From: Bdellovibrio sp. ArHS
Lineage (GTDB): Bacteria; Bdellovibrionota; Bdellovibrionia; Bdellovibrionales; Bdellovibrionaceae
Assembly (NCBI RefSeq): GCF_000786105.1
Contig: NZ_JTEV01000006.1
Location: forward strand, 16,410-80,409
Direction: 5' to 3'
DNA length: 64,000 bases
The position numbers were made by a program, and so were the translations under genes. This document shows, one piece after another, positions 52,549 through 54,707 of the stretch (within the stretch, counting starts at the first letter, position 1; each line of letters begins with the position of its first letter). The notes below the pieces were generated by a model that did no database searches, was not told the DNA's origin, and saw only the letters and a program-made list of their open reading frames with translations.

Positions 52549-52578
52549 TTGAAAATAAAACTTTGGTCGAGCTATCCT
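52549..52578 (+). promoter_or_regulatory. sigma70-like promoter of the riboswitch RNA
   Basis: TTGAAA-18 bp-TATCCT, predicting a start near 52585. Confidence 0.5.
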
Positions 52579-52657
52579 AAAAGAGTTGAAACCGCAGGGC
52601 TCGGAAGACTTACCTTCGAGTAAGTGAATGCTTTAGGGCCAGCTAAGGAGGACACAG

Positions 52658-52702
52658 ATGAAGAATCGTATTCACGATCATCATGATGAACCACCGAAGT
52701 GA
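52658..52702 (+). CDS. candidate 14-aa peptide MKNRIHDHHDEPPK
   Basis: Perfect SD TAAGGAGG (52644-52651) 6 nt before ATG. Confidence 0.45.
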   Translation: MKNRIHDHHDEPPK

Positions 52703-52833
52703 CGAGGCGTCACCAGGATTATTACGCAGAGGTTCCGGGTTCAGGCCTCTTAAAAAAATGATGAACTGGTTGGATCTATCGAATAACTCATAAGGAGGTT
52801 CCTAGGGTTATACTCGTTAGGATTTAGATCCTT

Positions 52834-52919
52834 CCTTTGCCTCAAGGCAAACCGTCGGAAACGGCGGGACGCAAAGCTAGAGGGGTGTCGGTTCGTCCAC
52901 GCCAGCCAGCTGCCAAAGG
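52834..52919 (+). promoter_or_regulatory. cyclic di-GMP-I (GEMM) riboswitch aptamer
   Basis: GGCAAA-CCGTCG-GAAA-CGGCGG-GACGCAAAGC...CAGCCAGCTGCC core; P1 CCTTTG/CAAAGG; GNRA-capped P2. Confidence 0.93.
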
Positions 52920-52949
52920 TGAGTCACCTGAGGAATCAGAGGTGTGCAT

Positions 52950-52994
52950 ATGGAAGGTATCAATACATACAAGGATTGGTTTCATTCCCCTTAG
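52950..52994 (+). CDS. candidate riboswitch-controlled 14-aa peptide MEGINTYKDWFHSP
   Basis: SD GAGGT (52939-52943) 6 nt before ATG; 30 nt after aptamer P1; stop codon runs into the terminator. Confidence 0.55.
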   Translation: MEGINTYKDWFHSP

Positions 52995-53034
52995 CCTGTG
53001 AGTTATCAATGACGATTCCTCGCAGGCACTTTTG
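52994..53034 (+). terminator. intrinsic terminator of the riboswitch RNA
   Basis: GCCTGTGAG/CTCGCAGGC stem followed by ACTTTTGTTTTT. Confidence 0.75.
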
Positions 53035-53057
53035 TTTTTGGGGATCTCGTTTTCTAA

Positions 53058-54176
53058 TTATTTACAGATAGAATAGCCGAATGCACCCGCCAGTTTATAG
53101 CGATTGGTATCTTCTTTAAAATTCTGTCGTGAGCGAAGAAAGCCCACACCCTCTTTCAAGTGAGAAACAAAGTCTTTGGCCTCGTAAGCCATGCCCGTCA
53201 AATAAACCAAGGACGCCGTCTTAGCGCCGAAACTGGCTTTTTGTGAACAACCTAAAAAGGCCGCCATGATATTGTGCCTGTTCCAATCATTCACGCTGTA
53301 GCCATACAGAGTGATTTTGATCTGATTCTTGTCGACCAACGAGCGAAAGACCATGTAGTTGTATTTGGCGGTTTGTAAATCTGAAAACTCAGCAAAGATC
53401 TGCTCTTTGGATTTTGGCGAATTCAAATCCTGCACCAAAAGGCGATCCTCAATCCCCTGTAACCAGCCCGTTAAACCCGAAGGGCCACTGCTGCCCATGA
53501 CGGTTAAGGCCGATAGAAGCAAAGCCGGATTGTCCTGCTGGAACTCTTCTAGGAACGCTTCTTCCAGCTTCAATTCGCCACCGATAACGGTTCGAGAAAG
53601 TTTTGCTAAAAGAGCATAAGAATAATCTAAAGACGTTGGCGTCAATGGCTTCTGAAGCTTTTCAAATTGTTTCAAAACCAGACGGTCCCCGGCAAAGCAG
53701 GCGTTGGAATCCACGTTCGACAATTCCCCTTTTAGGCGAACGCGATAACAAGAAGGCTCTAGGCTTTTCCACCAAAGGCGATTGAGAGGATTTCTGACGT
53801 TTTCAGTATTTTCAGAGAAAAAGAAAGGTTGGCGAATGGACTGAATCTGCGCAGTCCCACGGCATTTTTGTTCCACGCTGAGAGAGTTTTTAATGCCGCC
53901 AATAAGTTCATAAATAATTTTTCGCTGCTGCGAAAGAATCTCAGGACTTTCCAAGGAAGTTCGCGACAGGTATCCCGTCAATGGGACCGCTTTAGCATGG
54001 AAGTCAAAAGCGGAACAATTTTTCAACAAAGAAACTCGTTGTGCCAGAATCAGATTCAACCGATCTATCAAGGCACTGTTTTGAAGCTGTTGAGTCTCTT
54101 CAAAAGAAACAGCCCGCCCGGCAAAAGCCAGGCAGGATGAAAAAAGAATGAAGAAAGTGAGTAGAGCACTTTTCAT
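53058..54176 (-). CDS. hypothetical secreted protein
   Basis: Signal peptide MKSALLTFFILFSSCLAFA; 372 aa; several Cys; no family recognised. Confidence 0.75.
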   Translation of the reverse strand: MKSALLTFFILFSSCLAFAGRAVSFEETQQLQNSALIDRLNLILAQRVSLLKNCSAFDFHAKAVPLTGYLSRTSLESPEILSQQRKIIYELIGGIKNSLSVEQKCRGTAQIQSIRQPFFFSENTENVRNPLNRLWWKSLEPSCYRVRLKGELSNVDSNACFAGDRLVLKQFEKLQKPLTPTSLDYSYALLAKLSRTVIGGELKLEEAFLEEFQQDNPALLLSALTVMGSSGPSGLTGWLQGIEDRLLVQDLNSPKSKEQIFAEFSDLQTAKYNYMVFRSLVDKNQIKITLYGYSVNDWNRHNIMAAFLGCSQKASFGAKTASLVYLTGMAYEAKDFVSHLKEGVGFLRSRQNFKEDTNRYKLAGAFGYSICK

Positions 54177-54185
54177 TTTAAGAAA

Positions 54186-54707
54186 TTACCTTTCAGACTG
54201 TTCCGCAGCTGCGGCGGCTACCGCCGCTCCACCGACAACAAGGGCTCCGGCTGCCGCCGCACCAGTGGCAACGTCCTTAGCCTTTTCTCGCTTTTGAATT
54301 TCGTCCTGGCGTTTCGCACTAGCCTGAAGATCACTGCGCGTGTTGGCCGTACGAATTTGCGCTTGAGCGGAAGATGAAAGTCTCATCAGGATGGTTTCGT
54401 CACCGATCTTAATAGGCAAAACATCACCGATCATGTGGGGATTGAGTTCCAAGGAACCCGCCGTGTTTTGCACAACACCTTTAATATCCTGGGATTCGAT
54501 TTCCAGGATCATTTGTTTGCCACAGACGTTGTTCTTCGCGATGTCCAGGCGAAGAACCAACAAGGTCTCTTCTGTCTTTTCAATGGAAACAGTGGCTCCA
54601 CAGCTCACTTTTTCCACCGCCAGGACCATGCTGGCCGCGTGGGCAGAAAGGGATGTTAAACTTGTCGTCACAGATAACAGGGCACCGGCAATAGCTTTGA
54701 GTTTCAT
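54186..54707 (-). CDS. hypothetical secreted protein with C-terminal Gly/Ala-rich hydrophobic segment
   Basis: RBS AAGGAGAG, signal peptide, VATGAAAAGALVVGGAAVAAAA tail. Confidence 0.75.
   Translation of the reverse strand: MKLKAIAGALLSVTTSLTSLSAHAASMVLAVEKVSCGATVSIEKTEETLLVLRLDIAKNNVCGKQMILEIESQDIKGVVQNTAGSLELNPHMIGDVLPIKIGDETILMRLSSSAQAQIRTANTRSDLQASAKRQDEIQKREKAKDVATGAAAAGALVVGGAAVAAAAAEQSER

Follow-up and report, generated by a model that had tools for sequence, protein, structure and literature searches.

The c-di-GMP-I riboswitch in the window (the whole stretch of 64,000 nucleotides analysed here, from Bdellovibrio sp. ArHS) is followed by a 14-codon reading frame, MEGINTYKDWFHSP-TAG, at nt 52950–52994. 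The best explanation of this frame, to which we give a probability of roughly one half, is that it is a riboswitch-associated leader ORF, most likely translated, which acts in cis; the aptamer would then not be a true orphan. An ORF behind the aptamer, with its start buried by a helix that extends P1 and its stop placed on the terminator, would be a concrete thing for the riboswitch to control. All features described below lie on the forward strand unless noted otherwise.

The aptamer spans nt 52836–52917. It matches Rfam RF01051 over model positions 1–87; the covariance model gives 60.6 bits, where the gathering score is 35 (E = 2.2e-9), and it is the single copy in the Bdellovibrio sp. ArHS genome. 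The closing stem P1 is formed by CCUUUG (nt 52834–39), which is the exact complement of CAAAGG (nt 52914–19); this complementarity bears out the preliminary description, which had taken CAAAGG as the 3′ strand of P1. The P2 stem covaries, and its pairs show 9–17 double changes within the genus in the RNAalifold alignment. Judged by the score over the full model, the closing P1 and the covarying stems, nt 52836–52917 is a c-di-GMP-I riboswitch.

The riboswitch is part of a longer RNA, at about nt 52595–53041, the ends of which are approximate. A search of the genus with nt 52560–53060 found this RNA in 42 of 44 genomes, at 74–97% identity. The match in genome G001, nt 1073746–1074220 of the reverse strand, agrees in position with the merRNA published for B. 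bacteriovorus HD100 (nt 1,073,741–1,074,185, reverse strand; PMC3627812), and the HD100 locus shows 86% identity to the window over 477 nt (query positions 1–477). Because these coordinates coincide, nt 52595–53041 of the window is identified by homology as the merRNA orthologue. A consensus scan found a promoter-like element, TTGAAA-18-TATCCT, upstream of merRNA at nt 52549–52578. Its hexamers are kept in the genus alignment, and the published 5′ end of merRNA maps about 15–20 nt 3′ of it. The gene upstream of merRNA encodes an Mrp/NUBPL-type ATPase.

MerRNA is the massively expressed riboswitch RNA of HD100 described by Karunker et al. in 2013 (PMC3627812). It is 445 nt long, its attack-phase reads are as many as those of all mRNAs together, and the role of a c-di-GMP sponge was proposed for it (PMC3627812). 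The present locus resembles it in the order of promoter, leader of about 240 nt, c-di-GMP-I aptamer and terminator, with no gene behind (PMC3627812). The HD100 report regards the RNA as non-coding and denies a conserved ORF after the riboswitch, on the basis of two genomes only (PMC3627812), whereas about 190 loci were at hand here, in which a maintained mini-ORF stands on either side of the aptamer and a covarying helix, P0, is present. The RNA itself is thus already known. The literature searched holds no account of the maintained post-aptamer ORF, of its linkage to P0 and the terminator or of the order-wide single-copy distribution. Many GGA motifs also occur in the sequence, which prompted the idea of a CsrA sponge.

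RF01051 is present in 265 of the 384 genomes and 77 of the 121 genera of the order, almost always once per genome. At the order-wide loci (L046–L195) an intrinsic terminator is nearly always found within about 150 nt of the aptamer. Because the single aptamer and its terminator are spread across the order, the merRNA-type unit is, by this comparison, far older and wider than the genus, and the distribution is much wider than in the original report.

The intrinsic terminator of the window lies at nt 52994–53039. In the predicted fold its stem, GCCUGUGAG / CUCGCAGGC (nt 52994–53027), starts at the G of the stop codon of the post-aptamer ORF and is followed by a U tract. The stem covaries strongly, with 9–17 double changes per pair at four stem pairs in the genus alignment; past the terminator, genus members share no conserved sequence. 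In 92 of 96 loci the stem begins −2 to +1 nt from where the stop codon ends, so that the ORF end overlaps the terminator, as is expected of a leader attenuator. There is no same-strand gene downstream. The next ORFs are convergent, on the reverse strand: nt 53058–54176, of 372 residues with a signal-peptide-like N-terminus, and nt 54186–54707, of 173 residues with an Ala-rich C-terminus. Neither of them matched a Pfam family. Classical attenuation of a downstream gene was rejected for this genus, since the next genes are convergent and nothing on the same strand is left to attenuate.

The codons of the post-aptamer ORF are ATG GAA GGT ATC AAT ACA TAC AAG GAT TGG TTT CAT TCC CCT TAG. The SD GAGGT (nt 52939–52943) precedes the ATG at nt 52950 with a gap of 6 nt, and the last four sense codons, F-H-S-P, form the tract Y2, UUUCAUUCCCCU (nt 52980–52991). 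The HD100 orthologue of the frame reads MEGTNTYKDWFHSP. Within the genus, the frame M-E-G-x-x-T-Y-K-D-W-F-H-S-P is kept in 41 of 42 genomes, across indels of +3, +6, +3 and −3 nt; one locus, L043, is frameshifted. A clade of 11 species of the genus has lost the stop and reads on to 24 codons, and C-terminal extensions of 2–10 residues are tolerated in relatives.

For the wider comparison, loci were sampled by their aptamer, which avoids ascertainment through the ORF, and about 150 further loci were fetched across the order. The test of the frame covers the family of the window and one neighbouring family, 159 loci. The motif CATTCCCCT, allowing one mismatch at most, is found 3′ of the aptamer in 145 of them. 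The start was picked as the ATG with the best SD, blind to frame. This ATG is in frame with CAT-TCC-CCT in 121 of the 145 loci and out of frame in 24. Counted by distinct combinations of genus and distance, 44 of 63 are in frame (binomial against 1/3, p = 3.5e-9); counted by genera, 27 of 33 are (p = 1.4e-8). The in-frame distances from ATG to motif run 12, 15, 18 and so on up to 72 nt. A stop codon directly follows CCT in 116 of the 145 loci, being TAG in 68, TAA in 46 and TGA in 2. Since selection on RNA structure only predicts neither length changes in threes nor the interchange of stop codons, the comparison indicates that the reading frame is maintained as a frame across the family. It is probably also translated by ribosomes.

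The frames of relatives are 7–24 codons long and end in F-H/Y/N-S-P-stop. They span from MERFHSP, MERFYSP, MKKKDFSFHSP and MSLKNRFHSP to MEVESSVTKVTQNYIMDWFHSP, each directly followed by a stop. A textbook GGAAGGAG-N5-AUG precedes the frames of 7–11 codons in about 10 genera. In assemblies of 10 contigs or fewer, 40 of 40 loci are in frame, and all 24 out-of-frame loci come from fragmented assemblies; this is suggestive of assembly errors, yet one genus dominates and confounds the comparison, which is not relied on. A scan of metagenomes with the invariant 24-mer AAGGAGGTTCCTAGGGTTANACTC found just two loci, both with the same ORF. The preliminary description had proposed that the supposedly non-coding RNA encodes a peptide, and had named as checks whether ORF length, SD and pairing are conserved with synonymous-biased changes and whether ORF and SD are conserved where the aptamer is. 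SD, frame and stop are indeed kept over 33 genera, the pairing is kept as well within the genus, and 121 of 145 motif-bearing loci among the 159 of the family comparison are in frame. The other checks came out differently: the length varies between 7 and 24 codons, neither synonymous bias nor amino-acid-level selection was seen, and several other families of the order retain the aptamer, GGAAG and the terminator and have no ATG or ORF.

Sequence constraint on the 3′ ORF is of another kind. Y2 is nucleotide-invariant at the 145 of 159 family loci save for the C of CAU, and no synonymous codon is used for any of F, H, S and P. The changes seen near the ORF end are non-synonymous: H to Y or N, W to R or K, and D to E. 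Codon periodicity is absent from the ORF in the genus alignment (entropy 0.26/0.30/0.31 by codon position), where six codons do not vary at any of their three positions. The N-terminus is unconstrained, and some genera are reduced to MERFHSP. Because there is neither synonymous variation nor codon periodicity, and six codons are invariant, the alignments place the sequence constraint on the RNA; what looks like a coding constraint is only that the frame stays open. Among the features of a small ORF, nt 52950–52994 shows an SD with a start, a frame kept across indels and a conserved stop; synonymous bias and third-position variability were not found in it, with an upstream ORF serving as the control.

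That upstream ORF, MKNRIHDHHDEPPK, has 14 codons and lies at nt 52658–52702, behind the SD AAGGAGG at nt 52645–52651. At least 12 genera keep its peptide, with the pattern M.xRI[HFY]DH[HRN]D[EK].PK-stop, and other genera have the ends ...DPKPK, ...ADPAPE and ...ACESRAPK before the stop. Its entropy by codon position in the genus alignment is 0.38/0.34/0.67, highest at the third, and its 6-nt deletions stay in frame. The upstream ORF looks truly coding by these features. Because a second ORF of merRNA carries this classical coding signature, merRNA is plausibly engaged by ribosomes.

The start region of the post-aptamer ORF is paired with a sequence in front of the aptamer. The 5′ strand of this helix, P0, is Y1, (GAU)CCUUCC, at nt 52827–52835, which overlaps the 5′ strand of P1 by 2 nt. 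The 3′ strand is R2, GGAAGG, at nt 52952–52957. The P0 duplex is formed by GAUCCUUCC (nt 52827–35) with GGAAGG-U-AUC (nt 52952–61), at −12.7 kcal/mol by RNAduplex. GGAAGG is always present; it makes up codons 1–3 (AUGGAAGG) in some genera, including that of the window, and is the SD in others. P0 was examined by an alignment-free test on 88 representatives from the order, in which the duplex with the own partner was compared with duplexes with partners from other genera. The own partner gave the better duplex in 68 of 88 (Wilcoxon p = 1.8e-7). Compensatory changes lead from CUUCC:GGAAG to CUUUC:GAAAG and from CCUUCC:GGAAGG to CCCUCC:GGAGG. In genus g38 the change is from UCCUUC:GAAGGA to UACUUCC:GGAAGUA, and the peptide changes from MEG to MEV with it. 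By this evidence P0 covaries across the order, hides the start region, and abuts and extends P1. It is the best-supported candidate for the gating helix, and was missed by the preliminary description.

RNAalifold on 41 genus sequences returned P0, the covarying terminator, hairpins at the SD and within the ORF, and a closing helix of an SD-like element, R1, with Y2. Because these helices cover each of them, the SD, the start and the end of the ORF would all be paired in the folded RNA. R1, AAGGAGGU (nt 52792–52799), is a perfect match to an SD, but no start codon follows it in this genome. All genus sequences share it unchanged, and across the order it lies about 35 nt before P1; its GAGG pairs with CCUU of the ORF end in the RNAalifold structure. 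Alternative partners of R1 were also noted, namely CCUUCCUU (nt 52830–37), which covaries in L062 (AAGAGGA/UCCUCUU), or CCCCUU of the ORF end. In the stop-less clade, a T-to-C change converts a G-U pair of the helix between R1 and the ORF end to G-C.

These structures leave room for an alternative in which only the RNA matters and the frame is never read. AUGGAAGG, UUUCAUUCCCCU and UAG/UAA would then be kept for P0, the R1:Y2 helix, the internal hairpin and the base of the terminator, and the open frame would be a by-product. The motif without synonymous change and the ORF without codon periodicity agree with it, as do the covariation of P0, which dictates Gly or Val at codon 3, the burial of the whole ORF in the RNAalifold structure, the 24 out-of-frame loci of 145, the clade without a stop and the sister families without the ORF. 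It predicts, however, neither the multiples of three in the distance from AUG to motif over 12–72 nt (p = 3.5e-9 and 1.4e-8), nor the replacement of TAG, TAA and TGA by one another at a single site, nor the canonical GGAAGGAG-N5-AUG before frames of 7–11 codons in about 10 genera. This alternative is the likeliest among the rivals of a translated leader ORF, and we hold it to be rather unlikely.

The SD of the ORF is enclosed in a hairpin of its own, CACCUGA-GGAA-UCAGAGGUG (nt 52925–52944), with GAGGU at nt 52939–43. Its helix, CACCUGA:UCAGAGGUG, is paired in 98.5% of cells over the 41 genus sequences, and slid registers reach 19–65%. Between genera, UGA:UCA changes to CGA:UCG and CACCU to CGCCU, and one clade adds a G-C pair with the GGAA loop retained. 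The SD and the start are thus found in helices linked to P1, as in OFF riboswitches (98.5% pairing for the SD hairpin; p = 1.8e-7 for P0).

The preliminary description named CAAAGG (nt 52914–52919), AGGTG (nt 52917–52921), CACCT (nt 52925–52929), TCAGAGGTG (nt 52936–52944), GAGGT and the ATG at nt 52950, all of which are found at these positions, and proposed that AGGUG, overlapping the 3′ strand of P1, competes as an anti-anti-SD for the CACCU strand that otherwise sequesters the SD. Five-base complementarities of the AGGUG:CACCU kind are expected by chance in a single sequence. In the genus AGGUG:CACCU is paired in 94.4% of cells over the 41 sequences, compared with 19–65% for slid registers. 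Each of the two helices has one compensatory change, G-C to A-U at 155:159 (with a neighbouring pair broken) and G-C to A-U at 164:174, and both changes occur in the same clade of 10 sequences and count as one event. At the position that the helices share, the change from C to U is compatible with both of them, as it should be in a switching strand, within that single event. In other genera AGGUG:CACCU shrinks to about 3 bp. The SD thus lies in a conserved hairpin with compensations within and between genera, but the AGGUG:CACCU pairing relies on one event.

Equilibrium folding with ViennaRNA was run with P1 imposed and the interior of the aptamer masked and, for comparison, without constraints. 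No consistent change of accessibility with ligand state was found: mean unpaired probabilities were 0.38 and 0.38 for the SD and 0.36 and 0.33 for the AUG, and free folding misfolds the aptamer. This modelling neither supports nor refutes the switch. With the aptamer domain folded, the initiation region is hidden in the predicted helices, as it would be in an OFF design; such a design is plausible, and we infer the direction of c-di-GMP switching. In many relatives (L012, L016–L021, L023–L026 and others), a TCA is inserted after CAAAGG, in the region equivalent to nt 52920–52960 of the window. The insertion creates an extra ATG (…AAAGGTCATGAGTC…) and a frame of 35–50 codons, MSHLRNQRCAYGR…, across the platform. 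As its length and end are not conserved, this frame is probably spurious.

In the leader ORF model, c-di-GMP would lock P1, P1 would stack on P0, P0 and the SD hairpin would be stabilised, and initiation would be blocked. Without the ligand, the pyrimidine tract could pair with another partner, such as the upstream AAGGAGG, or the freed 3′ strand of P1 could take up CACCU, and the ORF would be read. A ribosome at the Pro-stop would have to open the 5′ arm of the terminator and would cover the invariant UUCCCCUU tract. The 3′ end of the RNA and the aptamer domain would be remodelled or destabilised in this way, changing merRNA stability, c-di-GMP release or ribosome occupancy. Because a ribosome at the Pro-stop would melt the terminator arm and cover the pyrimidine tract, the output is probably in cis, and a diffusible peptide is the less likely output.

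The place of the stop can also be understood as damage control. SD-like and AUG sequences that serve the structure would recruit ribosomes unavoidably, selection would keep only a stop before the terminator so that the 3′ end is spared, and translation would be without regulatory meaning. The position of the stop agrees with this, as in 92 of 96 loci it lies in the base of the terminator or directly ahead of it; the peptide sequence is unconstrained, and the out-of-frame variants still reach a stop within the terminator. Yet the strong canonical spacing of SD and AUG is kept or rebuilt in many genera, where the AUG is not lost, and sister families manage without an AUG, so that avoiding a start appears easy. 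We regard this explanation as unlikely.

The preliminary description had favoured a 14-residue micropeptide acting in trans, made only at low c-di-GMP as a lifecycle signal or enzyme modulator. Such a product would draw on the conserved ORF, SD and stop, on the C-terminal D/E-W/R-F-H-S-P common to relatives, and on the extreme abundance of the RNA in attack phase, at which even weak translation would yield much peptide (PMC3627812). The peptide itself speaks against this. Its length ranges over 7–24 residues, its N-terminus is unconstrained, with some genera having just MERFHSP, and C-terminal extensions of 2–10 residues are tolerated. The shared part is the C-terminal F-H-S-P only, which comes from a nucleotide-invariant RNA motif without synonymous variation and gives no sign of amino-acid selection. 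A trans-acting peptide is therefore quite improbable. An ORF that arose by coincidence from RNA constraints alone is rejected, since it cannot explain indels in threes and the interchange of stops.

Several known systems resemble the proposed leader ORF. Translational OFF riboswitches, including Vc2 upstream of tfoY in Vibrio cholerae, have P1 linked to elements that pair with the SD or start, as here, and c-di-GMP binding to Vc2 also controls RNA stability (10.1101/617340). Unlike Vc2, the frame here has 7–24 codons and ends at its own terminator, no protein gene is regulated, and the switching is what we infer. In the mgtA leader of Salmonella, with mgtL (PMC6460261), and in the EF-P-dependent coupling at attenuators (PMC5021804), a short ORF with critical Pro codons is combined with a riboswitch and a terminator-type hairpin, as in merRNA. 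The position of the ribosome can decide the RNA structure because the short ORF shares the leader with a riboswitch beside such a hairpin. By analogy, the proposed cis output would fit both the stability control of Vc2 (10.1101/617340) and the mgtA/mgtL logic (PMC6460261, PMC5021804). The present case differs from mgtL in that no gene follows in this genus, the ORF comes after the aptamer, and stalling is hypothetical. SR1 of B. subtilis, with its peptide SR1P, is likewise an abundant structured sRNA that combines an RNA-level role with a conserved small ORF (PMC5013986). SR1P is kept at the peptide level and has a partner protein (PMC5013986), whereas in the present ORF the frame and the RNA are constrained and the amino acids are not.

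A bolder form of the leader ORF model is that the frame ending in F-H-S-P-stop stalls the ribosome and that the aptamer controls initiation on this frame by way of P0 and the SD hairpin, so that merRNA would be a translation-coupled c-di-GMP device and not a passive sponge. We put this forward as a speculative extension, itself unlikely. A ribosome parked at the Pro-stop would hold the terminator arm and UUCCCCUU open, and would thereby set the half-life of merRNA and the release of bound c-di-GMP; in addition or instead, a sizeable share of ribosomes might be sequestered in the non-growing attack phase. If true, the level of the second messenger and the translational capacity would be tied together by this RNA when the cell passes from attack to growth. 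TnaC is a peptide that stalls termination and ends in Pro-stop. It shares with the present ORF a short frame, a last sense codon CCU (Pro) before the stop and, a few residues before it, Trp and Asp. Here W, D and P are spaced differently and the peptide has no known ligand, so that the resemblance is only a lead.

MerRNA is among the most abundant bacterial RNAs relative to the mRNA pool. For more than ten years it has been viewed as a c-di-GMP sponge that encodes nothing and whose riboswitch is an orphan. The presence of a gated ORF in it would bear on the timing of the attack-to-growth switch of Bdellovibrio. It is also a caution for annotation, in that riboswitches called orphan and sRNAs called non-coding may hide frames of 7–15 codons.

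Other parts of the order show variants behind the aptamer. Loci of genus g53 in family f7 (L049, L051, L066, L067 and L155), and L195 of g52, have a strong SD, AGGAGG, after the aptamer. Their frames are rich in consecutive prolines (MDITPIFRPPTPP… and MLNPKPNTRPIPP-stop; …FRPPTPP… and …IPP-stop). Ribosomes stall at such motifs in an EF-P-dependent way, which suggests that proline has come into convergent use where leader frames behind the aptamer end. Loci of genus g106 in family f12 (L046, L052, L055–L060, L063–L065 and L068) have no ORF. The loop of their linker hairpin, GGGCCUAG, has its complement in CUAGGCCC, directly beside the terminator stem CCCGCG…CGCGGG. The pairing looks like a pseudoknot or an antiterminator, and these relatives may act on termination instead. 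Genome G155, of genus g38, has three aptamer matches. One of them, L109, precedes an ordinary gene for a signal-peptide protein (MKNLKLKLVVVMSFISLNSFAQSS…), which is the classical layout of riboswitch and gene.
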